Made by a program: the position numbers and the translations under genes. Source: Bacteroidales bacterium (GTDB lineage Bacteria; Bacteroidota; Bacteroidia; Bacteroidales; UBA932). From it: DNA of 64,000 nucleotides. Below, in pieces: positions 28,196-62,123 of this stretch. The notes beneath the pieces were generated by a model. The model ran no database searches and was not told the DNA's origin. It was given only the letters and a program-made list of their open reading frames with translations. Position 1 is the first letter of the stretch, and every line of letters begins with the position of its first letter. Location: positions 1,385-65,384 of the forward strand of contig JAFZXV010000087.1 of assembly GCA_017616595.1 (NCBI GenBank), written 5' to 3'.

Positions 28196-29092
28196 CTATC
28201 CGAGCATCTTAGCAATCAGGGCGGGGGTGGCGGCGGGCGCGACGGACTGTATGTGGGCGTTCAAGAGGCGGTACGACTCTTCCGGCGAGTGGCCCGGCCC
28301 CTGCTCCTCCTCGTCCACGAACGGGAATCCCCCCGGCCCTAGCAAGCGGGGGCGTTTACCGCACGGCCCAACCATCCCGTCATACCCGCCTTTTCCGTCA
28401 TACCCGCCTTTTCCGTCATATCCGCCTTTTCCATCATATCCGCCTTTTCCGTCATACCCGCCTTTTCCATCATATCCGCCTTTTCCATCATATCCGCCTA
28501 TTCCGTCATACCCGACCTGATCGGGTATCCCCCCTACAATCCCCTCCGGCGCGCAGAACGTCGCAAGCTGCCACCCCACATAATGCAGGTCCGGTCCCCG
28601 ATAGACGCGGGCGATGTCCCCAACCAGCAGGCGGCACTGCATCTGCAACCGGGCACAAGCGGCATCGGCCCCGCTCTTCTTGAGACCGAGCAGGCGACGG
28701 ATGTCTTTGCTGGCGATGCTCCCGTTGGCATCAACATAATCCAGGATCTTCCGCCCGGCGGCATCGGGCTCATATTTTGGCAGGGAGCGCCGATAGTTCA
28801 TCAGCTCCCGGTACCACTGCGCCGTAGCGAACGCCGCCTTGCCGTTCCACAGGAACTTGCCGTACGCCACATCGCCGCTCTGCACGCAATCCACCTTCCA
28901 GTCCCAGGGGCCCAGGGTGTCCGAATCGCCGTCGAACCAGAACTCCGGCGGCGTCATCTCCTCAATGGAGTACCCGGGAATCGCGTTCTCAAAAAACGGC
29001 ACGATTCCCATCTCCCGGATGGCCCGCAGCATACTCTCCGCATTCACCACCCGCACCCCGAAAGGATTCCCCGCGTGTTTATCTATAGACAT
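28196..29092 (-). CDS. Conserved hypothetical protein (AlkZ-related/winged-helix-like) with an in-frame repeat insertion
   Basis: PWDWK...VAYGKF..GKAAF motif and an HTH-like segment; GIPDQVGYD followed by GGYDG(K) x7. Confidence 0.6.
   Translation of the reverse strand: MSIDKHAGNPFGVRVVNAESMLRAIREMGIVPFFENAIPGYSIEEMTPPEFWFDGDSDTLGPWDWKVDCVQSGDVAYGKFLWNGKAAFATAQWYRELMNYRRSLPKYEPDAAGRKILDYVDANGSIASKDIRRLLGLKKSGADAACARLQMQCRLLVGDIARVYRGPDLHYVGWQLATFCAPEGIVGGIPDQVGYDGIGGYDGKGGYDGKGGYDGKGGYDGKGGYDGKGGYDGKGGYDGMVGPCGKRPRLLGPGGFPFVDEEEQGPGHSPEESYRLLNAHIQSVAPAATPALIAKMLG
28377..28530 (+). repeat. Family A hairpin plus seven 18-bp tandem arm copies, in-frame
   Basis: (ccRtcataYccgcctWtt)x7 at 28377-28502, then gtcatacccgacctgatcgggtatc at 28505-28529. 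Confidence 0.9.
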
Positions 29093-29277
29093 GATTGCCC
29101 ATCAATGAGTTTCTTTATGTAATTGTAGCCAATCATTGTGCACAAAGATAAAAAGTATTTTTAATGCCTCATAAATATCTATAAAAATCGTAAATTTTTT
29201 GATGAAGAGACCGCTGTAGGCTTGGTTATTTCATAAAAGCATTTCATATTTGCAACGGAAACAATGAACTCAAAACT

Positions 29278-29922
29278 ATGGACTTCACACCAGAGTCACA
29301 AAGCACTCTGTTCAACAAGCAATCTTTTTCTGCGACTAACGTTATTATAGATGACCTTGATGAAAAGGCAAGGCTCCTGTCTTCTGTTGAAACAACTAAG
29401 CTTGTAAAAGGAGTGTTAAGCGCCGAAGATGGAACACCAGCGCTGCAGAGGGCGCTGCGTTGGTATCGTAATACTATCGTATCGGGGCGTTTATACTCTA
29501 CCGTTATTGGAACTGTTCTTATTGACGATCAGAGTATACGATCAACGATGGCCCACAAATACGGGCCAATAAAGCTAGATGCAATACCTTCCCTTTTTGA
29601 AGGCTTCAAGAATGCAGTGTATCTTATTGATCTTGCAGATTATGACAATAAGACAACAGTTTACTCCTATTTCGCATATCCAATAGAGTATGATGGGGAG
29701 CGTTATTATTGTCTCTGTCGGACAAAGTTAACCAATGACAAGAATGCAAAACGAAGATTATATATTCACGAGGTGTTTTCTCATAAATATATAAAGAACT
29801 TTACCTTTCAAGCTGCTGCTGACAAAAGTCACCAAGTCAGAGGTAAAGTTCTATATTCTCTCCTGTTGAAACAGGTTATCTGCAACAAAGTTAATAATAA
29901 TATAGAGAAAAACGATAACTAA
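29278..29922 (+). CDS. AT-rich hypothetical protein, possibly an LPD3/polyvalent-protein-associated domain
   Basis: Visibly AT-rich; C-terminal YSYFAYPIEYDGERYY...RLYIHEV pattern, recognised by eye only. Confidence 0.45.
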   Translation: MDFTPESQSTLFNKQSFSATNVIIDDLDEKARLLSSVETTKLVKGVLSAEDGTPALQRALRWYRNTIVSGRLYSTVIGTVLIDDQSIRSTMAHKYGPIKLDAIPSLFEGFKNAVYLIDLADYDNKTTVYSYFAYPIEYDGERYYCLCRTKLTNDKNAKRRLYIHEVFSHKYIKNFTFQAAADKSHQVRGKVLYSLLLKQVICNKVNNNIEKNDN

Positions 29923-30066
29923 CTCTGTAGTTCGTTTATTTTGCGGAAAATGGGGCGATTAATGCGCAATTTGCGCTCGGGAGTTGGATGGAACGTGATA
30001 TCTTTGTACAATCCAATAATATGGTAACGGACTAAGACACAAACAACACAACCAATTCATATCGAT

Positions 30067-30189
30067 ATGTTAAACAAAAAAAGCTATTTAGCACCCGACA
30101 TCGAGTTCGAACCGATGTCCCTGCAGTCGGTTCTTTGCGAAAGCACAGACACCGAGGATTACACTGTAATCGATGACTTTGTATGGTAA
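30067..30189 (+). CDS. 40-aa small peptide (YxxP...LCxS type) upstream of a pilin-like gene
   Basis: Manual translation MLNKKSYLAPDIEFEPMSLQSVLCESTDTEDYTVIDDFVW*; first ORF after the promoter box TAtcTTTG at 29999. Confidence 0.7.
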   Translation: MLNKKSYLAPDIEFEPMSLQSVLCESTDTEDYTVIDDFVW

Positions 30190-30205
30190 AAAGGAGGACA
30201 CGAAA

Positions 30206-32662
30206 ATGAAAAAGACACTCATTATCGCAGCCCTCGCAGCTGCCGCATTCGCAGTTTCTTGCCAGAACGAAGTTGTTGTCGACGCCCCTCAGGACGGAAT
30301 CGCGCACGACTACCGTACCGTTACCCTTCAACTCCCCGTCCCCGACACCAAAATTAATATTTCCGAAACGGATGGCAAGGTAAAATGGGTAGCCGGAGAC
30401 CAGATTATTGTCCACGGTAAGCTTGTCTCTGAAATGCAGACAATTACGCTGACCGCATCAGACATCTCAGCCGATGGCCTTTCGGCGCAGATCACTTTCG
30501 ACGCCAGCATCGAGCCTTATGGCGACCATGATTTTTACGCTCAGTACCCGGCGTCGGCAGTACACCCTTCAAGTTCCTCTAATGCATATCATTATTGCGA
30601 GTTTAACGATACGAACAAGCCCTTGATGGGTGCATATCTGGACAAAGAGGCCAACGCGTTCATCTTCTGCAATCTCTGCGCGGTTCTTTCCTTCAAGGTA
30701 AGTGGAGATTATGATTCTTATGAGTTTGTAGGAAACAACGAAGAAGTTGTCGGTTACAAACAGTATGGAATCAAGAGGCACGTCACCGATACTTATGTGA
30801 GGACTCCCGGCGAGGCACTCAACTCCATTTCAGGCCCTGTCGTCGCAGACGGCAGCACTCCTAATCTTATTTGCCTTGCTCCTACTTATTCTGCCGAATC
30901 TTCAAGTAAGACAGTCTTCTCCGAAGGCTTCTCAATCAGGTTAAAGAAAAATGGAGTCATCGTAAAGGAAGCCAAAACCGTTAAAGAACAGACTGTCAAG
31001 AGAAATCAGTACGTTCTTCTTGGCGACATCACAGGCATACTTACTGATTATGTTCCCGAAGCTCATCATTCTTCCATCACCGGAGCTACCGACCTTGGTG
31101 CATCCGAGACTGCAAACTGCTACGTTATTACCGCTCCCGGTTCTTACAAGATTCCGGTAGTCAAGGGCAACAGCAACGAATCCGCAGGCACAAGGGCCAA
31201 AACAAAACTCCTTTGGGAAACCTATAACAACGACCAGGATGTGGTTAAGAACAGCGTAATTGCAGCTGTCGATTATGACGATGACGACAATTACGTTTAC
31301 TTCAAGACTCCCGGCTCCCTCCAGCCCGGCAACGCCCTTATCGCTGCTGTGGACGAAGATGAAAACATCATCTGGAGTTGGCACATCTGGATTCCTTCAT
31401 CTCCGATTCAGACGATTGGTGATTATAAAGTTTCCACCAAGTACCTCATGGACCGCAACCTGGGCGCCCTGACCGGAGAAGCCGGAGAGAATGGTATGAA
31501 CTACGGTATGCTCTATCAGTGGGGCCGCAAGGACCCGAGAGTTGGCCTGGATGGAAACGGCGGAACAAGCTATGCCAAGACTGCCCCGGCTGGAGCTATC
31601 AGCGCTGTCAATATCGAAAATCGCAGCAAAACCGTTCTTGATGCCATTCAGAATCCTACCGTTTTCTACAACAACTGCCACGTCTGGTATGATTCCGCCA
31701 ATGAAGAAGAAGAGCTTTGGGCTCCGACAAAGACAATCTATGATCCCTGCCCGGCCGGTTGGGTCGTTCCTGAGAAGAATGCCATTTCTACTGGCCCTTC
31801 TGTTGAGGATGCAACGAATGGTGGCGTTACTGTAGGCAGTGTCTACTTCCCTGGTACCGGCGGCGCATCCAGATACACTGGAACTTGGAAAGAAGGCAAC
31901 ACCTTCCTTTGGAGTTGCACGACTTACCCCGGCTCCGATAATTCAAAAGAACGTGCAAACTGGTTCTTATTCAAAGACGCAGAATCTGCAGGCTTTGACG
32001 TCAAAGAATACAAAACCACCGCTGTTCCGGTCCGCTGCGTCAAGATTGATGGAGAAGTACCCGCTCCGGATTTAGCAGGCGCAACAAGTGTCGTCCTTGA
32101 CGGCAGTTTCGGCGATTGGGCAGATGCCGATACCATTACAGAAAGTGGAGACATCAAGGAGTGGAAATTCGGCTCTGACGCCAGCAACATCTACTTCTAC
32201 TTCAAGATCCCGCTTACAAGCATCAAAGCGGGCAAAGAGGAAACTTATGAAGATGGTCTGGGTTATCCTTTCAGGGATAGACGATACATTTACCTCGCCA
32301 TCAATACCGATAACGACGAGGCAACCGGCAGTGCGGCCAGCGCAGGTGGCCTGTCAATCACAGGCTGTGAAGCGCAAGCCCTGGTATTCCCGTTCAGAGG
32401 CTATGCCAGTACAGCCGAGGGCCTCGGTACTGAGGGTCTGGAATTCGTCAATGGTGTTGATGAAAACGGCTGGATCGAAAATCCTGTCGACACCAAGAAT
32501 GAGGGTAAAATCACCGCTTTCGGTTCTGCTGATGGAACCTATGCCTATCTTGAGATTGGCGTTCCCAGAGACAAAATCGGAAGCCCCGCCAATGGCAAAA
32601 TGAAGATTCAGTTCTCGTTCAGCTGGAACCTTACTTCTGAGAAGGTCTTCATTGTTAAGTAA
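30206..32662 (+). CDS. Pilin-like + ANCY lectin-like + C-terminal DOMON/CBM9-like lipoprotein
   Basis: Start MKKTLII...AVSC after AGGAGG; DTKIN...WVAGDQI; ANCYVI...PVRCV; LDGSFGDW...NIYFYF. Confidence 0.7.
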   Translation: MKKTLIIAALAAAAFAVSCQNEVVVDAPQDGIAHDYRTVTLQLPVPDTKINISETDGKVKWVAGDQIIVHGKLVSEMQTITLTASDISADGLSAQITFDASIEPYGDHDFYAQYPASAVHPSSSSNAYHYCEFNDTNKPLMGAYLDKEANAFIFCNLCAVLSFKVSGDYDSYEFVGNNEEVVGYKQYGIKRHVTDTYVRTPGEALNSISGPVVADGSTPNLICLAPTYSAESSSKTVFSEGFSIRLKKNGVIVKEAKTVKEQTVKRNQYVLLGDITGILTDYVPEAHHSSITGATDLGASETANCYVITAPGSYKIPVVKGNSNESAGTRAKTKLLWETYNNDQDVVKNSVIAAVDYDDDDNYVYFKTPGSLQPGNALIAAVDEDENIIWSWHIWIPSSPIQTIGDYKVSTKYLMDRNLGALTGEAGENGMNYGMLYQWGRKDPRVGLDGNGGTSYAKTAPAGAISAVNIENRSKTVLDAIQNPTVFYNNCHVWYDSANEEEELWAPTKTIYDPCPAGWVVPEKNAISTGPSVEDATNGGVTVGSVYFPGTGGASRYTGTWKEGNTFLWSCTTYPGSDNSKERANWFLFKDAESAGFDVKEYKTTAVPVRCVKIDGEVPAPDLAGATSVVLDGSFGDWADADTITESGDIKEWKFGSDASNIYFYFKIPLTSIKAGKEETYEDGLGYPFRDRRYIYLAINTDNDEATGSAASAGGLSITGCEAQALVFPFRGYASTAEGLGTEGLEFVNGVDENGWIENPVDTKNEGKITAFGSADGTYAYLEIGVPRDKIGSPANGKMKIQFSFSWNLTSEKVFIVK

Positions 32663-32689
32663 CTTTCGTAGTTATTAACCATTATTTGA

Positions 32690-32730
32690 AGAGGTCGACT
32701 GAAAATGGTCGGCCTCTATTTTATTTCTTT
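32690..32730 (+). terminator. Rho-independent terminator
   Basis: agaggtcgact-gaaaat-ggtcggcctct stem followed by a T-rich tail. Confidence 0.7.
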
Positions 32731-32832
32731 TTCGCTTATTACAACCAAAAATACGCAATTTGCGTGGGCTGATCGGTGGAAAAGGCTAATTTTGCAATAT
32801 TGCGTAATACGCACTTAACGATACACTGAGAT

Positions 32833-35523
32833 ATGGCTATAAGAATCTATCATCCAATTGTTCTGGCTGCTGTTTTGGCGGCATTGGCAATGTCTTCCTG
32901 CAGTAAAGAGATTCCCGGTCTGGCCGGGAATGACGGAATGGGAGCCGGGAATGACGGAATGGGGGCCGGGAATGACGTGGCGCAGGCCGAGACCGGCGAG
33001 GCGAGGACCTTTACCTGCGTAATTGAGGAGCCGGATGGCACTAAGCTGAGCATTTCCAACCAGGGTAAGACCCGTTGGGAAGAAGGAGACCAGATTCTCA
33101 TAAATGCCGGCTCGGGCGGCAACACGCGTGAGACCGTTACCCTAAAGGCAAGCGACATCAGCGCAGACGGCAAAACGGCCTCGATAACCATCACCATCCC
33201 CCCTTACGAGCACACGCACTATCAGACTGGCCTTCGCGACGACGTAAGCACCTACTATGCAATGTATCCCGCAGACGCCGTGGCTCCACTGCCGCTCTAC
33301 TACAACCAGGCGTACTCCAACACCAACGCTCCGCTGATGGCAGGGTGCAACAAAGACAACAGAATAGTCTTCTACAACGTCTGCGGCATCATATCGTTCA
33401 CCGTCTCCGGCAGCTTCGACAGCTATATCTTCTCCGGCAACAACGACGAGACAGTTGCCTACGACGTGTATCAGTGCCGCGTAAGGGACACCGGCAGCGG
33501 TCCGGAGCTCACCTCCCCAAAAACGGCAGACAGCTATCAGACTCTCACGCCCCAGACAACGGTAAGCGGATCTGTGGTGGCAGACGGCAGCACCGTCAAC
33601 TACGTGTGCATCCCCAACGGGGTAAGCTTCTCCAAAGGCTTCACCTTCAAGTTCCTGCAAGGCGACAACCTGGTCAAGGTTGCCACCACCGACACCAAAG
33701 TCAGCATCGGCCGCAGCAAGCTGCTGCCCCTCGGCAACATCACCTCCCATCTGGAGGATCCGTCGGCGGCAGAATTGCACAAATCGGAAATCGACCTTAA
33801 TTCGGCAACCGACCTGGGCGCATCCGAGACGGCAAACTGCTACATCGTCTCCGCCCCCGGCAACTACAAGTTCAAGGCGGTCAAGGGCAACAGCACGACC
33901 TCAGTGGGCACCATGGCCGGCGTGGAGCTCCTTTGGGAGACCTACAACAACGCCACCGCTCCCGAGAAGAACAGCGTCATAGAGGCCGTAGACTTTGAGG
34001 GACAGTGGATTGCGTTCAGCACTCCCGCCAGCCTGCAGCCGGGCAACGCCCTCATCGCCGCAAAGAGCGCAAGCGGCACCATCCTCTGGAGCTGGCACAT
34101 CTGGATTCCGGAAACGAGCATCGAGAGCAGCACGTACGACATTTCGTCGCACCTGATGATGGACCGCAACCTCGGAGCCCTGGTAACGGCAGGCACCGGT
34201 GCGGTTGAGGCAAACGGCCTCCTGTACCAGTGGGGCCGCAAAGATCCGTTCGTCGGCTTAGGCGCACACGGCAGCTCCGGCAAAGCAAAGGTGGCCGGAA
34301 CAGCCATGAGCGTGAGCAGCGCCGCCGCAAACGGCATCAGCGAGGGCATCGCCAATCCCACCAGATTCATAGTAGGAACCGGCTCAAACAACAACCATGA
34401 CTGGCTGATGACTTCCGACGCAACGCTTTGGGGAACCACCAAGACCATCCACGACCCCTGCCCTCCGGGATGGAAAGTGCCGGACTACAAAGAAGCGACT
34501 CCTTTCACTACCCAGGCACACACCCTCAACGGCTTCAACTACGACGCCGGCAACTACTGCATGACGGTTGGGTCCGCCGTGTTCCCTCTTACGGGATATC
34601 TGTACTACACAACCGGCAATATGTATAAATACGACACTTCCGCCAATGTCTGGACCTCCCACAGCAGCACGGGCTCCAGCATCGGCCTGGCGATATGGAT
34701 GTCGGTTGAGGCTGCAGACAACTCCAACAACTGGTCTGAGCGCAAATCCCGCGGCTGCTCGGTGCGGTGCGTATCCCACGACATAGCCCCGTTTGAAAAC
34801 GAGCCCGGAATGCCTGTACAGGGCGGCTATACCAAGATTCAGTTCGACAGCAGCATCCAGGAGCTTTCCGGTATCTGCTTCAGCAAAGACAAAGATTTCA
34901 TCTGGGGTGTAGGCGACGAGGGAGACATCTTCAAGATTTACCTCGACTGGACTAAGTCCGCCATAACACTCAAGAGTATAAGCATCTATAAATCAACAGG
35001 TTCCGACCTTGAAGACGTTACGCTCAACCCCAACACAGGAGACCTTTACTTTGCCAAGGAGCCAGACCGCGTTGATAAGATGGCCGCAACCAGCTACAGC
35101 AGCAAGACACAGGCTTTCTACGTTGCAGACGCCGCCAACTTTGGCAACTCGGGGCTCGAGGGAATCGCCTGGTATAAAGACAACACCCTGTACGTAGGAG
35201 CCCAGACCGGCGCAACCCTGTGGAAGTACCAGCTCGACGGCACTCTTATATGGACTAAGAAACTCGGAGACATCACGCCTTGGATTACCGAGGTCGGCGG
35301 CCTGTGCTACGACATCAAGAACGACTGGCTCTGGGTTGCCGATTCCGAGGCACAGAAACTCTTTGTGTTCAACGGCGAGGTTACCAAGCTGCTTGCAATG
35401 TACGACGTTAAATCGGTTGGCAACGCCGAGTCAGTAATGGTCGTGCCCGAATACAATTGCGTGCTGGTTGGCGACGACGGCAGCACCTCCAAGATATACA
35501 AATATAGCTTTACCGGACTGTAA
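32833..35523 (+). CDS. Pilin-like + ANCY lectin-like + SdiA-regulated propeller lipoprotein
   Basis: MSSC lipobox; GTKLS...WEEGDQI; ANCYIV...SVRCV; ELSGICF propeller closely similar to the gene at 6890. Confidence 0.75.
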   Translation: MAIRIYHPIVLAAVLAALAMSSCSKEIPGLAGNDGMGAGNDGMGAGNDVAQAETGEARTFTCVIEEPDGTKLSISNQGKTRWEEGDQILINAGSGGNTRETVTLKASDISADGKTASITITIPPYEHTHYQTGLRDDVSTYYAMYPADAVAPLPLYYNQAYSNTNAPLMAGCNKDNRIVFYNVCGIISFTVSGSFDSYIFSGNNDETVAYDVYQCRVRDTGSGPELTSPKTADSYQTLTPQTTVSGSVVADGSTVNYVCIPNGVSFSKGFTFKFLQGDNLVKVATTDTKVSIGRSKLLPLGNITSHLEDPSAAELHKSEIDLNSATDLGASETANCYIVSAPGNYKFKAVKGNSTTSVGTMAGVELLWETYNNATAPEKNSVIEAVDFEGQWIAFSTPASLQPGNALIAAKSASGTILWSWHIWIPETSIESSTYDISSHLMMDRNLGALVTAGTGAVEANGLLYQWGRKDPFVGLGAHGSSGKAKVAGTAMSVSSAAANGISEGIANPTRFIVGTGSNNNHDWLMTSDATLWGTTKTIHDPCPPGWKVPDYKEATPFTTQAHTLNGFNYDAGNYCMTVGSAVFPLTGYLYYTTGNMYKYDTSANVWTSHSSTGSSIGLAIWMSVEAADNSNNWSERKSRGCSVRCVSHDIAPFENEPGMPVQGGYTKIQFDSSIQELSGICFSKDKDFIWGVGDEGDIFKIYLDWTKSAITLKSISIYKSTGSDLEDVTLNPNTGDLYFAKEPDRVDKMAATSYSSKTQAFYVADAANFGNSGLEGIAWYKDNTLYVGAQTGATLWKYQLDGTLIWTKKLGDITPWITEVGGLCYDIKNDWLWVADSEAQKLFVFNGEVTKLLAMYDVKSVGNAESVMVVPEYNCVLVGDDGSTSKIYKYSFTGL
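32908..32976 (-). repeat. Family A hairpin plus 21-bp arm repeats, in-frame
   Basis: gagattcccggtctggccgggaatgac, then gccgggaatgac recurring at 32923, 32944 and 32965. Confidence 0.88.
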
Positions 35524-37502
35524 TGGCTTTCTTTAGGGTATTCTTTGCCGTTTTGGGCCTGCTGGGGGCGGCGGCGTGCGGCCGGCAGGAGATTCCCGAT
35601 CAGGTCGGGAATGACGGACTCGTTGTCGGGAATGACGCAAACGTTGCAGGGAATGACGGACTCGTTGTCGGGAACGACGGCATGCTCACGTTTACGTGCG
35701 AGATTGCGGACGCGGCTGATACGCGGCTGAGCATCGACGGTGCGGGCAAGACGCGGTGGGAGCCGGGAGACCAGATCCTGCTGCACGGAGATTACACTAA
35801 CTCCTCCTGCAGCGCCACGGTAACGCTCACTGCAGACAACATCTCCGACGACGGCAAAAAGGCCACCTTCACCTGCCCGTCCTTCACCGTATCTTCCCAT
35901 TCCGGCACCAAAGGATACCTGAGCACAATCTACGCCGGCTACCCCGCTTCCGCCGTCAAGAAGAACGAGCACTGCTACTACTATACTAACTTCACCTCTA
36001 CCAACTATCCGCTGATGGCGGCGTTCAACGTGGGCAATTCCCTTAAGTTCTACAACCTCTGCGGGGTGATTTCCTTCTGCGTGAGCGGCGATTTTGACAA
36101 GTACGAGTTCGTAGGCAACAACGGAGAGACAGTGGGTTACACCTATTACCGCTCCTACCTTGTACAGAAGGGCGACGAGAGCTACAGGCTGGAATATAAT
36201 TACGCCACGGACGGCGGCACCTCCGGCCCCCTTACGAGCATTTCCGCCCCTGTGGCGGCAGACGGCAGCAAAGTCAACTACATCGGCATTCCGGCAGGAG
36301 CGAATTTCTCCGGAGGCTTCACCATCCGCTTCCTTAAGGGCAGCAGCGTGGTTAATGTGGTTTCGACCACCAAATCGGTAAACCTCTCTCGCAACAAACT
36401 CCTGCCGCTGGGCGACATAACAGCTCGCTTGTCCGACCCCGGCGACGATCCAGGCCAGGGGGAGGAAGTCGGCAAGCTCTGCAAGGAGGAATGCCTCGGC
36501 CAGAAGCCTATGGTCATCGCCTATCTGACCGAATACACATCCAAGACATCGCTTGACCCCACTTACGTGACGCACATCAACTATGCCCACGGGCGCTTTG
36601 TCAACCCCACCACGGGCGACGGAGGCCTCTACATCGAGGAGGGCAGCGGACTGATGACCAAAGTGCTGGCCCTCAAGACCCAGAAGCCCACGCTCAAGGT
36701 GCTCCTGATGATAGGCGGATGGGGTTCCAAGGCCGACGGCTTCTCCATGATGGCGCGCGACGCAGACAAGCGCACCCTCTTCTGCACGGAGTGCAAGAGG
36801 CTCATCGACACTTATGGCTTCGACGGCATAGACATAGACTGGGAGTACCCTGGCGGAGGCCCGTCGACCAACGGCAAGAGCTCCAGCGACGCCGCCAACT
36901 TCAACCTGGTACTCAAGGAGTTGCGGCAGACCATCGGAGACACCAAGATCATCTCCTTTGCATCTTCTTCCAGCGCCGGATATGTGTCCTGGGCAGGGGC
37001 GATGGAGTATCTGGACTACGTCAACGTGATGACTTACGACATGGGCGACCCGCCCAAGCACAACTCGCCGCTGTATAAGTCCAGCACCTTCAACCAGCGC
37101 AGCTGCGAAGAGAGCATCAATCTGCACAAGAACAAGGGAATACCCCTGGACCGCATGAACCTCGGCGTGCCGTTCTACGGCCACGGCACAGATCCATATG
37201 CCGACGACGTGAAGTACAACGAGATGGCCTCCATCCTCAACAATAACTATTATGCCTCGGGCAAGGTGGACGTAACGGGCAAGAACATCTACCGCTGGGA
37301 CGATGTGGCCAAAGTTCCGTACCTTGTAGACACTTCGGGCAACATCCTCCTCTGCTACGACGACGCCGAGTCCGTTGAGTGGAAGGGCAAGTTCGTGCGC
37401 GAGAAAGGCCTCCTTGGCGCCATGTTCTGGGAGTACCGCCACGACGATTCCGCCGGCACGCTCCGCCGCACGCTCTACAACGCCGTTTACAATCCGGAAT
37501 AA
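35523..37502 (+). CDS. Fimbrillin/pilin-like domain fused to GH18
   Basis: AAAC lipobox; N-terminal domain near-identical to the gene at 26039; GH18 DGIDIDWEYP most similar to the gene at 189. Confidence 0.82.
   Translation: MAFFRVFFAVLGLLGAAACGRQEIPDQVGNDGLVVGNDANVAGNDGLVVGNDGMLTFTCEIADAADTRLSIDGAGKTRWEPGDQILLHGDYTNSSCSATVTLTADNISDDGKKATFTCPSFTVSSHSGTKGYLSTIYAGYPASAVKKNEHCYYYTNFTSTNYPLMAAFNVGNSLKFYNLCGVISFCVSGDFDKYEFVGNNGETVGYTYYRSYLVQKGDESYRLEYNYATDGGTSGPLTSISAPVAADGSKVNYIGIPAGANFSGGFTIRFLKGSSVVNVVSTTKSVNLSRNKLLPLGDITARLSDPGDDPGQGEEVGKLCKEECLGQKPMVIAYLTEYTSKTSLDPTYVTHINYAHGRFVNPTTGDGGLYIEEGSGLMTKVLALKTQKPTLKVLLMIGGWGSKADGFSMMARDADKRTLFCTECKRLIDTYGFDGIDIDWEYPGGGPSTNGKSSSDAANFNLVLKELRQTIGDTKIISFASSSSAGYVSWAGAMEYLDYVNVMTYDMGDPPKHNSPLYKSSTFNQRSCEESINLHKNKGIPLDRMNLGVPFYGHGTDPYADDVKYNEMASILNNNYYASGKVDVTGKNIYRWDDVAKVPYLVDTSGNILLCYDDAESVEWKGKFVREKGLLGAMFWEYRHDDSAGTLRRTLYNAVYNPE
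35589..35681 (-). repeat. Family A hairpin plus 21-bp arm repeats, in-frame
   Basis: gagattcccgatcaggtcgggaatgac, then gggaaYgac with a 21-bp period (units at 35604, 35625, 35646, 35667). Confidence 0.88.
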
Positions 37503-37507
37503 CAATC

Positions 37508-37534
37508 GTCATACCCGACCCGCTCGGGTATCTC
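37508..37534 (+). repeat. Family A hairpin, intergenic
   Basis: gtcatacccgacccgctcgggtatctc. Confidence 0.85.
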
Positions 37535-45051: not shown

Positions 45052-45080
45052 CGCAGTGGAGACATAATTGCACGGTCTCG

Positions 45081-45267
45081 TGGCGCAAGTTCCAGGCCCT
45101 CTTAGCGCAGGTTCCAGGCCCTCGTGGCGCAGGTTCCCGGCCTTCTTGGCGCAGGTCCCTGGATCTCGTGGCGCAGGTCCGAAAAAAAGTGGGAGACCTG
45201 CGCCGCAAATCACCAATATACGCTCTGCAGTGGCGCAGGTGGTGGCAGAAAAATCGGACCTGCGCCA
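45081..45267 (+). repeat. Family E element (45169-45267) preceded by four 22-bp tandem arm copies
   Basis: tRgcgcaRgt at 45081, 45103, 45125, 45147 and 45169. Confidence 0.85.
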
Positions 45268-45276
45268 TCGAGCCCT

Positions 45277-45609
45277 TGCGAAGACGATGAGAAGGGCGCT
45301 CCGCTGTCTTCGCAGGTGGGGAAAAGCGAGAAAAGCCGGCAAAACCGCATGCGAAGACGATGAGAAGGACGTTCCGCTGTCTTCGCAGGTGGGGAAAAGC
45401 GAGAAAAGCCGGCAAAACTGTTTGCGAAGACGATGAGAAGGACGTTCCGCTGCCTTCGCCGGTGGGGAAAAGCGAGAAAAGCCGGCAAAACTGTTTGCGA
45501 AGACGATGAGAAGGACGTTCCGCTGCCTTCGCCGGTGGGGAAAAGCAAGAAAAGCCGGCAAAACTGTTTGCGAAGACAACGAAAAGGACGTTCCGCTGCC
45601 TTCGCAGGT
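45277..45609 (+). repeat. Family D: about 4.5 tandem copies of a 73-bp unit containing a hairpin
   Basis: Units start at 45277, 45350, 45423, 45496 and 45569; stem tgcgaagac...gYcttcgc. Confidence 0.92.
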
Positions 45610-45737
45610 AGGGATGGCAGACCAACAAGATATTACAAGATGATTCGGAGGCACGGAGTGCCGACCGGAGGGGGACATCGCTTGCGATGTGCGGGGGAGA
45701 GCCCTCCCCCGTCCCCTGGGGGTGCAGGGGGATAATA

Positions 45738-51006: not shown

Positions 51007-51009
51007 CAT

Positions 51010-52020: not shown

Positions 52021-52919
52021 TGCTGCTCGCGCAGTTCATACGCGATGCGGCGCGTCAGCTCGAGGCTCTGTATCCTCCCGGCGAGGCACGGAGCCTCGTG
52101 GCGCGTCTGGTGGAGGAAGTTCAGGGCGTGAAGGATTACGTGGCGGTACTGGAGCCGTCGCTGGAGGCCGCGCCCGAGCTTTCCGAAGGGCTGGCGCGGC
52201 TGCTCGACGGCGAGCCGCTGCAATACGTTACCGGAGTGCAGGAATTCTACGGACGGCGTTTCCGCGTGAGGCCGGGAGTTCTGATTCCCCGGCCGGAGAC
52301 GGAGATTCTGGTGCGCGAGGCCTGCGTGCACGCGCTGCAGCTGCCTGGCGCCAGGGAGCATGGCTCCGGCGCCTTGTCCGGCCCGCGCGTGCTGGACCTC
52401 TGCACCGGCTCCGGCTGCATAGCCTGGAGCGTTGCGCTGGAGGTTCCCGGCGCCCGTGTCGTGGGAGTCGACATCTCCGACGAGGCCCTTGCCGTGGCCC
52501 GTACCCAAAACCCTGCCGCCCCACCGTCATTCCCGGCCCGACCGGGAATCTCCGCCCCTCAATTCATTGAGGCCGATGTTCTCGGCGGGCTCCCGGAGCT
52601 CCCGGACGGCTCCTTCGACATCCTGGTTGCCAATCCGCCGTACATACGGGAGAGCGAGCGGGCGGCGATGCACCGCAACGTGCTGGAGCACGAGCCGGCG
52701 CTGGCGCTCTTTGTGCCGGACGCAGACCCGCTGCTGTTCTACCGCGCAATAGCCGGCCACGCCAGGCGGCTGCTGGCTCCCGGAGGATGGGGGATGGTGG
52801 AGATAAACGAGGCGCTCGGAGCCCAAACCGCCTCCGTATTTGAGTCCGCCGGATTGCAAAATGTGCAGATTTTGCCCGATTTTTTTGGACGGGACCGCTT
52901 CGTAAGCTTTATCCTGTAG
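52020..52919 (+). CDS. prmC: Release-factor glutamine methyltransferase
   Basis: EPLQY, VLIPRPETE, LDLCTGSGCIA and NPPY motifs; GTG start overlaps the ddl stop. Confidence 0.93.
   Translation: MLLAQFIRDAARQLEALYPPGEARSLVARLVEEVQGVKDYVAVLEPSLEAAPELSEGLARLLDGEPLQYVTGVQEFYGRRFRVRPGVLIPRPETEILVREACVHALQLPGAREHGSGALSGPRVLDLCTGSGCIAWSVALEVPGARVVGVDISDEALAVARTQNPAAPPSFPARPGISAPQFIEADVLGGLPELPDGSFDILVANPPYIRESERAAMHRNVLEHEPALALFVPDADPLLFYRAIAGHARRLLAPGGWGMVEINEALGAQTASVFESAGLQNVQILPDFFGRDRFVSFIL
52526..52552 (+). repeat. Family A hairpin, in-frame in prmC
   Basis: gtcattcccggcccgaccgggaatctc, translated as SFPARPGIS. Confidence 0.85.
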
Positions 52920-53010
52920 GCCTGGGAGGCCGTTTTTAAACTTAAGCGTTGCAATTCTTGGAGTAACGGATAATTATCCCTTACTTTGCCACCAAAGAAC
53001 TGTAACGACT

Positions 53011-54396
53011 ATGAAAAAGTATTTCTTTATTCTCATTGCCGGCATCTTTGCCGCCTGTACCCCGGAACAATATTATGTAGAACCCGCAGAGCCGGGGCCG
53101 GAGCCGTTCGAGCTCAGCGCCCGCGGCCTGGCAACAATGTTTGCCTCTCTGCCGATGGGGACGGAACAACTGCGCGAGGTATATCAGGCCGTCGGCCACT
53201 CCAGCAACAACGGTTACGACGAGGAGTATACGCTGGACAGCCTGCTGCTCAAACCCGGCGCCGGAGTGGGCCCCGGCACCAAGGCGCGGCCTTCCGGCAC
53301 GCCGCTGCGGGAAATGGTGCGAGGCTACCTTGAGGAGCACGCTTCCACCCGCTCTGGAATAGACGACCTGATGGAACTGATTGCCGAATCCGGCTACCAG
53401 CTCTACTGGCCGTACTCGGAAGACTGGGACGGAATTTCGTACCCCGTCATCACCTTCGACCCCGGCTACGGCGCCGAATCCAACTATGGGTTCGAACTCT
53501 CCCCCAGCCCCTCCGGCGCCATAATCACAGACACCCTTACCGTAGACGAAGCCCTCGCCCAGCGCCGCCCCGTGTGGGTTATCAACAGCAATTCCGACGC
53601 TGCGTTTACGCCGCTTGAGTTGTTTGCGCCGGGCGATTCTGGCTCCACTGCGCTGAAAGTGTTTTGCAAAACCTCCGCTTCGCTCCGTCCCTCCCACTGC
53701 GCTTCGCTTGTGGGCCCCTCCCGTTCATGTGGCCACGGGCGGCCACAGTTTTGCAAAATACTTCCAGCCTCCGTTCCGCCAGAATCGTCCGATTGTTCCT
53801 GCATTGAAGACAGATACCCGATCAGGTCGGGCATGACGCAAAGTGAGAGCGTGACGAACGAAACGGGCGTGACGCAAGGGAACGTCATTGCCGGCTGTGA
53901 CCGGCAATCTACTACCGCTTCCCGGCCACGGAGGTTGATGCTGAAGAGCTTCAGGATGCTGAGGAATTACGACAGTTGGTTCGGGGGTGCGTCGGAGTTC
54001 TGGATTAAGTGCGGCAGCGTCGAGGGGTTCAGCGCGGCGACGGAGGCGGAGCTGCAGCTGTACAGCCCCAGCATCACGGACTTCATGATTGTTGTAAAGC
54101 GGCGGGATATCAATAAGGAGGTACCTTACGAGGCGATTATGGTGTCCGACTTCTCCACCCAGCTGGACAAGATTGCGTTCCTGGTGGTGGAAGACGACGG
54201 AGGCACCCGCACCGGCTGGAAATGCGAGGCAACCGTAAAGATACAGTCCAAATCGTACGGCGTCTCGCTGGACATTCCCTACAACGAAAAGGACGACATA
54301 GTCTGGCGCGGCCAGCTCTCCGCACGTTTCTTCGAGGAGGAAGATATCGTCACCGGCCGCTTTGGCGACGTAATCTGCAGCTTTGAGCTGGAATGA
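53011..54396 (+). CDS. Hypothetical lipoprotein with a compound in-frame repeat insertion
   Basis: FAAC lipobox; the frame stays open across 53652-53910, which is repeat-derived. Confidence 0.75.
   Translation: MKKYFFILIAGIFAACTPEQYYVEPAEPGPEPFELSARGLATMFASLPMGTEQLREVYQAVGHSSNNGYDEEYTLDSLLLKPGAGVGPGTKARPSGTPLREMVRGYLEEHASTRSGIDDLMELIAESGYQLYWPYSEDWDGISYPVITFDPGYGAESNYGFELSPSPSGAIITDTLTVDEALAQRRPVWVINSNSDAAFTPLELFAPGDSGSTALKVFCKTSASLRPSHCASLVGPSRSCGHGRPQFCKILPASVPPESSDCSCIEDRYPIRSGMTQSESVTNETGVTQGNVIAGCDRQSTTASRPRRLMLKSFRMLRNYDSWFGGASEFWIKCGSVEGFSAATEAELQLYSPSITDFMIVVKRRDINKEVPYEAIMVSDFSTQLDKIAFLVVEDDGGTRTGWKCEATVKIQSKSYGVSLDIPYNEKDDIVWRGQLSARFFEEEDIVTGRFGDVICSFELE
53652..53768 (-). mobile_element. 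Family B element (short subtype, reversed), in-frame
   Basis: 21-bp inverted repeat gctgaaagtgttttgcaaaac with 2 mismatches; 117 bp long. Confidence 0.82.
53812..53910. repeat. Inverted pair of family A hairpins with 18-bp arm repeats between them
   Basis: agatacccgatcaggtcgggcatgac; tgac at 53834, 53852 and 53870; gtcattgccggctgtgaccggcaatct. Confidence 0.82.
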
Positions 54397-54401
54397 CTGC
54401 C

Positions 54402-54437
54402 GCTGCCGGGGCGCCCGATATTGGGCGGGCCGGCAGC
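54402..54437. terminator. GC-rich hairpin between convergent genes
   Basis: gctgccgg..cgccc-gatatt-gggcg..ccggcagc followed by an A tract. Confidence 0.55.
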
Positions 54438-54470
54438 AAAAAAGGCCTGAATCGCCGCCGGGGCGCCCGA

Positions 54471-55151: not shown

Positions 55152-55235
55152 AAGCCAAAATATTATTCAAACAAATTTAGCAGATTTTCTGGAATTTTAC
55201 TTAATTTTGTACGGATATACAACACAGTACTATTT

Positions 55236-57077: not shown

Positions 57078-57577
57078 AAGCATACCGTTTTGTAATTGTG
57101 TTCGTGGTGCTGGTTCTTGTGCAGATCGTGCTGTGCAACTTCCTCAACCTGTCCCGCTACGTGGTGCTGTCTTACCTGCCGGTGCTCATCATGATGCTGC
57201 CGGTGCGCTGGAACAACGTCCCCATGATGCTGTTTGCGTTTGCTCTGGGATTCCTGGTAGACTTTTTCTCCACCGGGATGCTGGGGCTCACCAGCCTCGC
57301 GCTCGTGCCGGTCGCGCTCGCCCGCGGGCTTGTCGTCGCCGGCATGTTCGGCGACGAACTCGGCGCCCGCGAGGGCGAGCTCAGCCTGTCCCGTTTCGGC
57401 TTGCTCAAGTTCATACTGGCCATCCTGATGCTCTGCGCGCTGTATTTCCTGGTGTACGTGTGGGCAGATTCCGCCGGCACCATGGGCTTCTGGCAGTGCG
57501 CCCTGCGCTTCTTCCTGTCTGTGCTGGTGAGCACGCCCGTCTGCATCTTCATATCCACAATCCTGCGTCCCGAGTAG
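57074..57577 (+). CDS. mreD: Rod shape-determining protein MreD
   Basis: Hydrophobic; GFLVDFF..GMLG; lies between mreC and mrdA. Confidence 0.82.
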   Translation: MKAYRFVIVFVVLVLVQIVLCNFLNLSRYVVLSYLPVLIMMLPVRWNNVPMMLFAFALGFLVDFFSTGMLGLTSLALVPVALARGLVVAGMFGDELGAREGELSLSRFGLLKFILAILMLCALYFLVYVWADSAGTMGFWQCALRFFLSVLVSTPVCIFISTILRPE

Positions 57578-57578
57578 T

Positions 57579-59411
57579 ATGGAAGCCAACAACCGTTCGA
57601 CCAAGCTGCTGATCGGGCTCGGGGTGGTGGTGCTTATCCTCCTCGGCAAGCTGTTCTGGGTGCAGATAGTAGACGAGCGTTACAAGATAGACGCCGCCAA
57701 CAACTCGATGTCGCGCGAGCTCATCTATCCGCCCCGAGGCGTAATCTACGACCGCAACGGAGTTCTCCTCGTGGGCAACCGCATCTGCTACGACATCCTG
57801 GTGACGCCCCGCGAGGTGCAGCAGTTCGACACCCTCGCGCTGGCGGAGTGCCTGGACACCACAGCCGATTTCATCCGCGAGCGCATGGAGTACTACCATA
57901 ACTTCCGCACCCGCATAGGCTGGCAGACGCTCACCTTCCTCAAGCAGGTGGACGCGTCAACATACATGAAGTTTGCCGAGCAGCAATACAGCTTCCCGGG
58001 CTTCAAGAGCCAGGCGCGCGGCATCCGGGAGTACCCCTTCAACGCCGGCGGCAACCTGCTGGGCTACATCTCCGAGGTGGATGCCGAGTTCCTCAAGACG
58101 CATCCAGATTATCGCGCCGGCGACTATTACGGCCGCACCGGGCTTGAGGCGGCACGCGAGGAAGACCTGCGCGGCAAGACCGGCTGGCACATCTACCAGC
58201 GCGACTCCCGCGGCCGCAAGAAAGACCCGTACAAAGACGGAGAGTACGATGTGGAGGCCATCCCCGGCAAAGACATCACCACCACCATAGACGCCTACCT
58301 GCAGAACTACGGCCAGCGGCTGATGAACGGCAAGAAAGGGAGCCTGGTGGCCATAGAGCCGTCTACGGGTGAGATCCTGGCGATGGTGTCCAGCCCCGGC
58401 ATAGACGTAGACGTGCTGTCCGACTTCGGGCGCCACTACAGCCAGCTGTCGCAGAACAAGCACAAGCCGCTCTACAACCGGACCGTGTCCGCGTCGTACC
58501 CTCCGGGATCGGTGTTCAAACTCGTAAACGGGCTTGTGGGCCTGCAGGACGGGGTTCTTCAGCCGTCGATGTATTACCCCTGCCACGGCGGATACGTCTA
58601 TACTTCCAGCGGCCGCACGCTGGGCTGCCACTACCACCGCTCGCCCCTGAATATGGAGGATGCGGTGATGATGTCGTGCAACAGCTACTTCTGCTACGTT
58701 ATGCGCAGCATCCTGGAGAACCCGGAATACGGTTCCACGGAAGAGGCGTACAACCACTGGCGGGAGATGGTGATGAGCTTCGGGTTCGGCAACAAGCTGG
58801 GCAGCGACTTCCCCTCCGAGCTGAGCGGCAACATACCGTCGGCGGAGTTCTACAACAAGCGCTACCGCAAGGGGCACTGGCGCTTCCCCACCATCGTGTC
58901 CCTTTCCATCGGCCAGGGAGAAATCCTCACCACGCCGCTGCAGATAGCCAATCTGGCGGCGATTATGGCAAACCGCGGCTACTACTGCATCCCCCATGTG
59001 GTCAAGGCGGCGGGCGATGTGGAGATAGACGCCAAATACAGAGAGCGCCACTACACGCTGGTAGACACCGTCCACTTCCCAAAGATGGTGCGCGGAATGT
59101 GGAAGGCCGTAAACCAGTTTGACGACGGGGCTACGGCCAACGTGGCGTATGTGCGCGGCCTGAACATCTGCGGCAAGACCGGCACGGCCCAGAACCCGCA
59201 CGGCAAAGACAATTCCGTGTTCATCTGCTTTGCGCCCATGGACAATCCGCAGATTGCAGTTGCGGCATACGTAGAGAATGCGGGATCCGGCGCCAGCTGG
59301 GCCAGCCCGATTGCGTCCCTGCTGGTAGAAAAGTACCTGCGCGGAGAGATTAGCGAAGACCGCAAAGACCTGGAACGCAGAGTGTTACGCACTAAACTTA
59401 TACGCCAATGA
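57579..59411 (+). CDS. mrdA: Penicillin-binding protein 2
   Basis: PPRGVIYDRNG, YPPGSVFK, SCN and KTGTAQ motifs. Confidence 0.93.
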   Translation: MEANNRSTKLLIGLGVVVLILLGKLFWVQIVDERYKIDAANNSMSRELIYPPRGVIYDRNGVLLVGNRICYDILVTPREVQQFDTLALAECLDTTADFIRERMEYYHNFRTRIGWQTLTFLKQVDASTYMKFAEQQYSFPGFKSQARGIREYPFNAGGNLLGYISEVDAEFLKTHPDYRAGDYYGRTGLEAAREEDLRGKTGWHIYQRDSRGRKKDPYKDGEYDVEAIPGKDITTTIDAYLQNYGQRLMNGKKGSLVAIEPSTGEILAMVSSPGIDVDVLSDFGRHYSQLSQNKHKPLYNRTVSASYPPGSVFKLVNGLVGLQDGVLQPSMYYPCHGGYVYTSSGRTLGCHYHRSPLNMEDAVMMSCNSYFCYVMRSILENPEYGSTEEAYNHWREMVMSFGFGNKLGSDFPSELSGNIPSAEFYNKRYRKGHWRFPTIVSLSIGQGEILTTPLQIANLAAIMANRGYYCIPHVVKAAGDVEIDAKYRERHYTLVDTVHFPKMVRGMWKAVNQFDDGATANVAYVRGLNICGKTGTAQNPHGKDNSVFICFAPMDNPQIAVAAYVENAGSGASWASPIASLLVEKYLRGEISEDRKDLERRVLRTKLIRQ

Positions 59412-60700
59412 GAGACGACGAACCGGTAAGGGGCCTGCGGCACACTGTAGACTGGAAGCTGATTATCCTGTACCTGCTGATAATGCTCTTCGGCTGGATG
59501 AACATCTATGCCGCGGTGCGCAGCGGCGAGCCGGCCAGCATCTTCGACCTTGGCTGCAACAGCGGCAAGCAGGCTATATGGATGGCCGGAGCGCTGGTGC
59601 TGGCGGTGGTCATCCTCTTTGTCATCCAACCGTATTTCTGGGAGAGCGTATGCCGCCCGGCGTACGGGCTGGTGCTGGTGCTGCTGGTGCTGGTTATCTT
59701 CCTGAGCAGCAATGTAAAGGGCTCGCATTCGTGGTTCGAGCTGGGGCCCGTCAAGTTCCAGCCGGCGGAGCTGAGCAAGATTACGACGTCCCTTCTACTG
59801 GCGTCGATCATGAGCCGCCCGGGCTTCAAGATGAGCTCGTGGAAGGACTTCCTGACGGCGGCCCTTGTGGTGGCAGTGCCCATGCTCGCCATCATAGCGG
59901 AAAGCGAGACCGGATCCGCCCTGGTGTACGCAGGATTCATCCTTGTGCTGTACCGCGAGGGCCTTTCCGGATGGATTCTGGGGCTTGTGGGAATGGTCAT
60001 ATTGCTGTTCGTGCTGACTCTTACCACGCACTGGGCGGTATCGCTCGCTCTGGTGGTGGCAGTGGCGGTGGTGTTTGCAGTCCGCATTCTGCCCAAGGCT
60101 CCGACGCTCCGGGTGAGGAGACGGTTTGTAAGAAGGATAATCCTTGCTGCGATGGTTGGCGTGATGATGGTGATGGCCACCGACTTCATCTTCCATAATA
60201 TGCTCAAGGATCACCAGCGAGGGCGCATCGAGGTTCTGCTCGGGCTCAAGGAAGACCCCCAGGGGCTCGGCTACAACGTGCACCAGTCGCTGATTGCGAT
60301 AGGTTCGGGCGGACTGTTCGGCAAGGGCTATCTGCAGGGGACGCAGACCACCTTCGGCTTTGTGCCTGAGCAGAGTACGGACTTCATCTTCTGCACCGTT
60401 GGAGAGGAGTGGGGATTCGTGGGATGCCTGCTGGTAATAGCCATGTACGCGCTGCTCATCTTCTGGATAGTGCGCGACTCCGAGCAGGCGCGGACGGCGT
60501 TCACGCGCATCTACGGCTATTGCGTGGCGGCGTGCCTGTTCATGCATCTGTTCATTAACATCGGTATGACCATCGGGCTGATGCCGGTTATCGGCATCCC
60601 GCTGCCGCTGTTCAGCTACGGCGGGTCGTCGCTGTGGTCGTTTACCGTGCTGATATTCATATTCATCGCCCTCGACAGGCAAGAAAAGAAGTATTTCTGA
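59408..60700 (+). CDS. rodA: Rod shape-determining protein RodA
   Basis: FQPAELSK, QSLIAIGSGG, PEQSTDFIF and PLPLFSYGGSS motifs. Confidence 0.94.
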   Translation: MRDDEPVRGLRHTVDWKLIILYLLIMLFGWMNIYAAVRSGEPASIFDLGCNSGKQAIWMAGALVLAVVILFVIQPYFWESVCRPAYGLVLVLLVLVIFLSSNVKGSHSWFELGPVKFQPAELSKITTSLLLASIMSRPGFKMSSWKDFLTAALVVAVPMLAIIAESETGSALVYAGFILVLYREGLSGWILGLVGMVILLFVLTLTTHWAVSLALVVAVAVVFAVRILPKAPTLRVRRRFVRRIILAAMVGVMMVMATDFIFHNMLKDHQRGRIEVLLGLKEDPQGLGYNVHQSLIAIGSGGLFGKGYLQGTQTTFGFVPEQSTDFIFCTVGEEWGFVGCLLVIAMYALLIFWIVRDSEQARTAFTRIYGYCVAACLFMHLFINIGMTIGLMPVIGIPLPLFSYGGSSLWSFTVLIFIFIALDRQEKKYF

Positions 60701-62079
60701 TGTTTACCCGTATTGTCCAGATAATCAACGATATAGTATGGAGCCCCGCGCTTGTGGTGCTGCTCATCGCGGCCGGGCTGTTCCTTACCGTGGGCACCCG
60801 CTTCGTGCAGGTGCGCCACTTGCCGGAAATGGTGCGCTCGCTGGTCTCGCGCAAAGCCGGCCGCGGCAGCGGAATCTCTTCTTTCGAGGCCTTCTGCATG
60901 GCACTGTCCGGCCGTATCGGTACGGGTAACATCGTAGGCGTAGCTACGGCCATCGCCTTTGGCGGACCGGGTGCGGTGTTCTGGATGTGGCTGATTGCTT
61001 TCTTTGGCGCCGCCACCGCCTTTTCCGAATCTACGCTGGCGCAGATGTTCAACTTTCCGCACAAGACCGTGTTCCGCGGCGGCCCGTTCAGCTACATAGA
61101 GAAGGGCCTCGGTGCCAAATGGCTGGGAGTGGTCTTTGCCATCGTGTGCATTGTGGGATACGGGCTCAGCGGGCCTACGGTGCAGGCCAACGGCATGAGC
61201 TCGGCGCTGGGCAATTCGTTCGGCATTCCTCCGCTGTGGAGCGGAGTGGCGCTGGTCGTAATCCTCGGGCTGGTGATCTTTGGCGGCGTCAAGAGCATCT
61301 CCCAGGTGGCAAAGGTGGTTACGCCGTTCATGGCTCTTGGCTACATCGGATTGTCCCTGGTGATTATCTTCACGCACCTCGACGCCGTGCCTGGCGTGTT
61401 CGGGATGATTTTCCGGAGCGCCTTCGGGCTCGATTCCGCATTCGGCGGCATACTCGGCTCCACCATCATGATGGGAGTCAAGCGCGGCATCTATTCCAAC
61501 GAGGCCGGGCAGGGCGGCGGGGCCATCGTGTCTGCATCGGCCGACGTGTCGCATCCGGTGCGGCAGGGCTTTGCGCAAAGCTTCTCCGTGTACGTTGATA
61601 CGCTTCTGGTCTGTACGGCAACCGCGCTGATGATACTGATCTGCGGCTCTTACAATGTGCTGGATTCCGGCACCGGAGAGATTCTGGTGGCGCAGGCACC
61701 CGAGCTGGGCAACAACTACGCCGGCTTTACGCAGGCGGCGGTGGATTCCCTCCTGCCGGGCCTTGGCGGCAAGTTCATCAGCGTGGCGCTTATCTTCTTT
61801 GTGTTCACCACCATCATGGCGTACTACTTCTATTGCGAGTCGGCGATAATCTATCTATGGCGCGGGCGCGAGGGAAAGGGAGAGAAAGTTGCCGTGTTCC
61901 TGATGCGCGTGGCCATCCTGGGAGCCGTGATCTTCGGCGCCCTCAAAGAGGCCGACGTCATCTGGCAGATCGGCGACATCGGCGTGGGCATCTGCGCCTG
62001 GATCAACGTCGTCGCCATCCTCCTCCTCAGCCCCAAAGTCTTCCGTGCCCTCCGGGACTACGAAAAGAAGCGGCCTTAG
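60700..62079 (+). CDS. Alanine/glycine:cation symporter (AGCS family)
   Basis: GTGNIVGVA..GGPGAVFWMW and RGIYSNEAGQG motifs; start at MFTRIV. Confidence 0.93.
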   Translation: MFTRIVQIINDIVWSPALVVLLIAAGLFLTVGTRFVQVRHLPEMVRSLVSRKAGRGSGISSFEAFCMALSGRIGTGNIVGVATAIAFGGPGAVFWMWLIAFFGAATAFSESTLAQMFNFPHKTVFRGGPFSYIEKGLGAKWLGVVFAIVCIVGYGLSGPTVQANGMSSALGNSFGIPPLWSGVALVVILGLVIFGGVKSISQVAKVVTPFMALGYIGLSLVIIFTHLDAVPGVFGMIFRSAFGLDSAFGGILGSTIMMGVKRGIYSNEAGQGGGAIVSASADVSHPVRQGFAQSFSVYVDTLLVCTATALMILICGSYNVLDSGTGEILVAQAPELGNNYAGFTQAAVDSLLPGLGGKFISVALIFFVFTTIMAYYFYCESAIIYLWRGREGKGEKVAVFLMRVAILGAVIFGALKEADVIWQIGDIGVGICAWINVVAILLLSPKVFRALRDYEKKRP

Positions 62080-62096
62080 CTCCGTTGCGCAAATAT

Positions 62097-62123
62097 GAGA
62101 TACCCGATCGAGTCGGGTATGAC
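62097..62123 (-). repeat. Family A hairpin, intergenic
   Basis: gagatacccgatcgagtcgggtatgac. Confidence 0.85.

Follow-up and report, generated by a model that had tools for sequence, protein, structure and literature searches.

The window analyzed here is a 64,000-bp stretch of contig JAFZXV010000087.1 from a gut Bacteroidales bacterium (GCA_017616595.1; G000 below), a metagenome-assembled genome (MAG) of 2.04 Mb in 196 contigs, with 57% GC and 77.6% completeness. The window carries eight copies of a short palindromic hairpin, which we call family A. Six of them are read in frame within the genes of an AlkZ-related protein, two adjacent paralogous lipoproteins, a further lipoprotein and a PrmC/HemK-type methyltransferase, and at four loci one arm of the hairpin is reiterated in tandem on one side (Table 1).

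The eight hairpins, four arm arrays and four reading frames had been listed in an earlier, sequence-only reading of the window, and all of them were recovered in place by pattern search, by direct reading of the sequence (including the variant with a 6-nt loop at 53884) and, for three of the arrays, by Tandem Repeats Finder (TRF). The pattern search returned 13 strand-hits at 7 loci, compared with a chance expectation of 0.55, and Rfam at gathering score gave 0 matches in the window. The array at 28377–28514 was scored by TRF as 18 bp × 7.7 with 92% matches, together with a 54-bp higher-order period, which indicates a later expansion of blocks of units.

Translated in frame, the genic hairpins read GIPDQVGYD, EIPGLAGND, EIPDQVGND, SFPARPGIS, RYPIRSGMT and VIAGCDRQS. 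In each host open reading frame (ORF), conserved sequence flanks the insert on both sides without a change of frame. The insert of the AlkZ-related gene is absent from its orthologues and from a paralogue on contig C159 of the same assembly, and its site is a variable linker; in protein alignment, the PrmC insert falls in a hypervariable loop. The exact boundaries of the inserts cannot be set, as the protein sequence of the host loops is hypervariable and the relatives at species level are too diverged. At the DNA level, an empty-site comparison of positions 32700–33300 with 200 congeners matched only the repeat part of the query. The two paralogous lipoproteins carry a hairpin plus array (32908–32977 and 35589–35680) in matching positions, each immediately behind the lipobox Cys. 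The stem and loop subfamilies differ between these two copies, and this difference suggests that two insertions took place, or a conversion event, and not the inheritance of a single copy.

Table 1. Family A hairpins and arm arrays in the window, and Y1-like genes elsewhere in the source assembly (positions by contig).
Feature	Position	Strand	Remarks
18-bp array of seven units (head-side arm + tag + filler)	28377..28504	-	encodes (GGYDGK)n in the AlkZ-related gene
Full hairpin, GTCAT...ATCCC on the + strand	28505..28531	-	at the array end away from the CGTC head side
Full hairpin, GAG-ATTCCCGG-TCTGG-CCGGGAAT-GAC	32908..32934	+	in an 896-aa lipoprotein, immediately following its lipobox Cys
Two 21-bp units (filler + arm + tag)	32935..32977	+	TRF 32923-32977: 21 bp x 2.6
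Full hairpin	35589..35615	+	after the lipobox Cys of a GH18 lipoprotein
Three 21-bp units (filler + arm + tag)	35616..35680	+	TRF 35604-35680: 21 bp x 3.7
Solitary intergenic hairpin	37508..37534	-	3 bp past a stop codon
Solitary in-frame hairpin (SFPARPGIS)	52526..52552	-	variable loop of the PrmC/HemK-type methyltransferase; from translation and alignment
Full in-frame hairpin (RYPIRSGMT)	53811..53837	+	in a 461-aa lipoprotein
Degenerate 18-bp units (G(C)GTGAC + filler)	53838..53883	+	between two head-to-head hairpins; by eye, under the TRF score threshold
Variant hairpin, stem ATTGCCGG, 6-nt loop	53884..53909	-	opposite orientation, read as VIAGCDRQS
Solitary intergenic hairpin	62097..62123	+	adjoins other repeat families
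Y1-like genes	C82:1918-2838, C143:7029-8027, C32:29478-30341, C92:17456-18355, C114:11075-11929		none flanked by family A hairpins

Family A in the source genome and among known repeats

Genome-wide, G000 contains 80 hairpins with an 8-bp stem (AT plus six further pairs) and a 5-nt loop, which is TCAGG, TCAAG, TCGAG or another sequence; a few copies have a 6-nt loop. The palindrome is followed by GAC in 78 of the 80 copies and bordered on the opposite side mostly by GAG, which fixes the orientation of the unit. GAC is followed by a further G in 95% of solo copies, and on the other side the base that precedes the palindrome is fully conserved (100%). Read on the CGTC strand, the unit is therefore CGTC-AT, the 6-bp variable part of the stem, the 5-nt loop, the partner arm and AT-CTC, with the 3-nt tail conserved in G000 as CTC, CCC or CTG. 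When candidates were selected by the flanks only, 93 were obtained versus 11 in a shuffled genome, and in 75 of the 93 all internal pairs were formed (6/6). Furthermore, stem pair 3–19 occurs as TA, GC, AT and CG, and pairs 4–18 and 8–14 occur as two types each. These compensatory changes, and the perfect pairing of candidates chosen by their flanks, indicate that the hairpin itself is maintained.

By the criterion of a spanning ORF, 55 of the 69 testable copies (80%) are genic, compared with 92% of random positions, so the copies are only mildly depleted from genes. Several head-to-head pairs were seen, on contigs C21, C68, C101, C112, C136 and C138 and, in the window, at 53811/53884. In a scan of species genomes, the exact motif was found mainly in rumen and gut Bacteroidales MAGs (Cryptobacteroides, Alloprevotella and others), and also in Fibrobacter, Roseivirga, proteobacterial, Dehalococcoidia and Saccharimonadales records. 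Within the genus the distribution is patchy: the motif is present in 28 of 61 genomes, at 0 to 76 copies each. Contig depth summed over four gut metagenomes rises from ~20 to >1000 at the hairpin-bearing bins 32860–33183 and 35452–35775, which indicates that the repeat is abundant across that gut community.

The sequence-only reading had likened the stem to Neisseria dRS3 and to repetitive extragenic palindromic (REP) elements, and this likeness is real. As judged from its sequence architecture, family A is a CGTC-tagged REP, a class that includes the Neisseria dRS3/NTS repeats. CGTC REPs are defined by an unpaired head CGTC (or TGTC/CCTC), an 8–9-bp stem starting with AT, a 4–5-nt loop and a 3-nt tail CCA; they are known from five phyla including Bacteroidetes, comprise Neisseria dRS3 and Rickettsia RPE-4 and RPE-6, have known intragenic copies and no known transposase, and are paired mainly as head-to-head dimers (Di Nocera, De Gregorio and Rocco 2013, PMC3733652). 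Family A shares with them the unpaired CGTC head, the AT-starting 8-bp stem and the 5-nt loop, as well as the dispersal of copies and the occurrence of intragenic copies, which are occasional in the published class. Its conserved 3-nt tail and its head-to-head pairs may correspond to theirs. On the other hand, the published tail is CCA rather than CTC/CCC, ~80% of the family A copies lie in ORFs, and a text search of that study found no mention of one-sided arm arrays like those of family A.

Within this class, the commonest family A subfamily has the same arms as Neisseria dRS3 (ATTCCC-N8-GGGAAT), and the two belong to one superfamily. However, the spacing is N8 in dRS3 and N9 in family A, whose palindrome is 21 bp long, so the strict dRS3 pattern does not match, and other family A subfamilies have ATGCCC, ATACCC, ATTGCC or ATCCCC arms, unlike dRS3. 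Like family A, the Rickettsia palindromic elements are inserted in frame into protein-coding genes at tolerated sites; family A differs in its 27-bp units with polar arm arrays and in its host, a free-living gut Bacteroidales rather than an obligate intracellular bacterium. GTAG REPs and REPINs with their RAYT partners are also short, tagged, multicopy hairpins, and clusters with reiterated flanks are known among them, but family A has neither the GTAG tag nor a flanking RAYT, and the class of the partner enzyme differs. The class to which family A is assigned is thus already known; its one-sided arrays on the head side and its strongly genic, in-frame distribution were not found described in Di Nocera 2013 or in Chenal et al. 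2025 (PMC11893778).

Polarity and reading frame of the arm arrays

In 37 of the 80 copies in G000, tandem chains composed of a filler, the head-side arm and the tag extend from the CGTC head side of the hairpin, whereas at most 2 of the 80 have the other arm repeated, as a single additional copy upstream. At 120 loci from other genomes, the corresponding numbers are 58 head-side chains versus ~1 with the other arm, and the tailed loci there include those of an alphaproteobacterial MAG and of a Dehalococcoidia MAG. The polarity reported for the four arrays of the window therefore holds across genomes and phyla. The order within a chain is always whole-half-half, and no chain begins with a half unit once hairpins with a 6-nt loop are counted. 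The copied part usually starts at the last 1–2 bases of the loop, or else at the end of the other arm, and extends through the tag.

The fillers are 4–15 nt long (mode 8), begin with G and are purine-rich regardless of the coding strand. They are 81% identical within arrays. The description of the fillers as specific to each locus is correct in part, the G-initial and purine-rich pattern being common to them. In 55 of 78 arrays, what follows the last tag has no relation to the filler, and in 9–23 of the 78 the filler is repeated there. Because 55 arrays stop at the tag, the first extra arm is not accounted for by a simple tandem duplication. A second repeat family in G000, with a GTCAT head (GTCATCCTGAGC...), has head-side arm arrays with short fillers as well (C101:1372-1443, C98:1234-1284 and C122:3216-3291).

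What makes the arrays one-sided? Contig C171 carries tailed elements in both orientations within 10 kb, and in G000 the orientation of the elements has no link to GC skew or to gene strand. GC skew was discarded as a proxy for the direction of replication, as the skew on short contigs tracks gene strand; where G000 contigs show a marked skew, ~80% of coding bases have the C-rich strand as their coding strand. Furthermore, the folding energies of the two strands differ by 0.1 kcal/mol, that is, no strand asymmetry was found in folding. With orientation unlinked to skew or gene strand and with equal folding of both strands, the polarity is intrinsic to the element, and the sole asymmetry that remains is that of its unpaired head and tail.

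The periods of the arrays depend on their location. Among arrays spanned by long ORFs, all periods are multiples of three in 20 of 21 cases in G000 and in 14 of 19 elsewhere (34 of 40 in total). Outside long ORFs, this is so for 1 of 4 arrays in G000 and 5 of 22 elsewhere (6 of 26), where chance would give about one-third. The non-genic value is near chance and the genic arrays are nearly all in frame, which indicates that the generating process is blind to the reading frame and that selection removes the arrays that shift it. The selection for frame proposed in the sequence-only reading is thus borne out. Its remark that intergenic copies lack a tail is true of the window and fails genome-wide: tailed non-genic copies are found on C69, C98, C138 and C139, with periods of 18–22 bp that are mostly not divisible by three. 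The 27-bp unit itself corresponds to nine codons and is open in most frames, and arrays were found in both coding orientations.

Ssn nucleases and other candidate sources of the arrays

Could the one-sided arrays be the trace of a nuclease that acts at the head of the hairpin? The Ssn enzymes, characterized in 2025, are small single-domain GIY-YIG nucleases (~100 aa) that bind hairpins of this class as single-stranded DNA, on one strand only, and whose cut falls a few nucleotides upstream of the CGTC head, at a distance of 3 nt in N. meningitidis. Binding depends critically on the C that immediately follows the palindrome and cutting on the three bases that precede it, and ssn genes typically have the motif on their flanks (PMC11893778). 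The head and stem core of their NTS/SRM target (CGTCATTCCCG...CGGGAATC) are nearly identical to those of family A. The GTC before the palindrome is conserved, and the base after it is invariant, in both (in the complementary reading of family A, GAC in 98% and G in 100%), and the invariant positions of family A coincide with those needed for SsnA cleavage and binding. The two differ in that only 2% of NTS are intragenic in N. meningitidis (PMC11893778) versus ~80% of family A copies, and in that tandem copies or duplications are not mentioned in Chenal 2025, whereas family A has arm arrays.

The sequence-only reading had also called for a nuclease or transposase gene flanked by the hairpins. 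Such a gene was found in relatives and not in the G000 assembly. The congener G050 has a 107-aa single-domain GIY-YIG gene with eight family A hairpins on both sides of it, half units included, and homologues in G335, G554 and G235, which represent three other genera of the same family, are likewise flanked by family A hairpins. More distant Ssn-like homologues are flanked by related stems. The genus has nine more small GIY-YIG genes; judging by the flanks of two of these, which were read in translation, a different CGTC-type repeat appears to border them. The Ssn-like protein family has >6,000 relatives, mostly on short contigs.

On these grounds, we consider it probable that family A consists of CGTC REP hairpins of the kind bound and cut by Ssn, and that a frame-blind process adds arms on the head side, followed by selection for frame. 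A small GIY-YIG Ssn nuclease would read the hairpin as single-stranded DNA, on one strand, and cut it a few nucleotides upstream of the CGTC head. Hairpins landing in variable loops or linkers of proteins would survive because nine codons open in most frames are tolerated there. A process at the DNA level would then add modules of filler, head-side arm and tag on the head side only, irrespective of frame, and purifying selection would leave in genes only the arrays whose length is a multiple of three, giving rise to linkers rich in Gly, Asp and Asn. The additions might begin with a strand that is broken or stalled at the Ssn cut site, where repair synthesis would switch template back into the arm; slippage or unequal exchange would later expand whole units.

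The main argument for such a break-initiated origin is that the arrays lie on the side that Ssn cuts, and it is from this coincidence that we infer a link between nuclease cutting and the arrays. The joint is also break-like, in that 55 of the 78 arrays stop at the tag and are followed by unrelated sequence. The sequence-only reading had offered nicking or slippage at one arm as the cause; nicking now has an outside basis in the position of the Ssn cut (PMC11893778), and simple slippage does not fit those 55 arrays. The stricter proposal, that the one-sided arrays are in vivo scars of Ssn cleavage in which repair adds one module of filler, arm and tag per cut and so makes in-frame, low-complexity linkers in genes, such as those behind the lipobox of surface lipoproteins and in enzyme loops, is a tentative one that we hold to be possible but less than even in its chances.

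Several observations weigh against these proposals. G000 has no GIY-YIG match of any kind, even to UvrC, and no tblastn hit to the Ssn homologues; as the assembly is 77.6% complete, lacks UvrC and, like others, will often leave repeat-flanked genes unassembled, this absence carries little weight either way. Only 10 of 61 genomes of the genus were seen to have small GIY-YIG genes, and among the 16 REP-rich ones 5 did. The published degenerate SRM pattern matches only 12 of the 80 copies, although it discriminates poorly, with 26 matches in a shuffled genome. Cutting at the distance known from N. meningitidis, 3 nt off the head, does not account for fillers of 4–15 nt. Finally, array lengths gave no sign of ongoing instability: the arrays at 28377 and 32908 have identical lengths in the Logan contigs from four samples of one study, a type of assembly that cannot reveal rare length variants.

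If the polar arrays are indeed the footprint of Ssn, genomes record where and on which strand the enzyme acts in vivo, and its activity would be mutagenic in a specific, directional way. In this gut Bacteroidales lineage, CGTC hairpins can populate coding sequence on a large scale and, once filtered for frame, can give rise to repetitive linkers in housekeeping enzymes and surface lipoproteins, a concrete route for repeat-driven protein change. The polar arrays and the genic distribution together provide a testable link to Ssn activity.

A different origin, which we regard as unlikely but worth weighing, is replication slippage alone, with no nuclease. The hairpin would stall the polymerase, and the end of the loop or the start of the arm would share GG microhomology with the purine-rich flank on the head side, leading to tandem duplications. 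The fillers and the flanks of solo copies are indeed purine-rich on the head side, the fillers often end in GG like the loop, the minority of arrays that repeat the filler after the last tag have the form of a duplication, and the 54-bp period at 28377 resembles ordinary expansion of existing units. Yet the 55 arrays that end at the tag did not gain their first extra arm by simple tandem duplication, and the equal folding of both strands and the modest purine bias of the flanks contrast with a polarity that is near absolute and independent of orientation on one contig.

Much less probable is an origin in a Y1 (RAYT-like) HUH transposase, the arrays being left behind when strand transfer at the tag is aborted or reiterated as the enzyme mobilizes the hairpins. 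Y1-like genes with HUH motifs, coding for ~300 aa, number at least four in G000, and one type is present in 13 of 16 REP-rich versus 10 of 33 REP-free genomes of the genus. This correlation with REP content is weak and not specific, however. The genes are multicopy in REP-free genomes (G012 has five copies and no REPs), no family A hairpins lie on the contigs of the Y1-like genes or nearby, the score is 35 bits against a curated RAYT cut-off of 80 bits, and the literature finds no transposase for CGTC REPs. The ~300-aa proteins form a multicopy family with a weak Y1/HUH (IS200-like) N-terminal domain, at up to 11 copies per genome in the genus.

We give hardly any weight to the remaining alternative, that the half units are decayed whole-hairpin tandems or that the arrays are protein repeats kept for their function with an incidental hairpin: whole-hairpin tandems with 34–44-bp periods do occur at C49, L042, L043 and L080, and two arrays do sit at the same place in paralogous lipoproteins, but decay is rejected by the chain order, in which the full hairpin is always first, and protein function by the arrays with non-triplet periods outside genes and by those in both coding orientations.

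Two further arrangements of repeats were observed. At C125:23087-25223 of G000, two composite intergenic modules of ~150 bp, each combining a family A hairpin with other repeat families, are inverted relative to each other, 2.1 kb apart, and bracket a queF-like gene and a transporter-like gene with no transposase. In the window, TRF also reported tandem arrays unrelated to family A at 45077–45178 and 45276–45614, with 22/44-bp and 73-bp periods.

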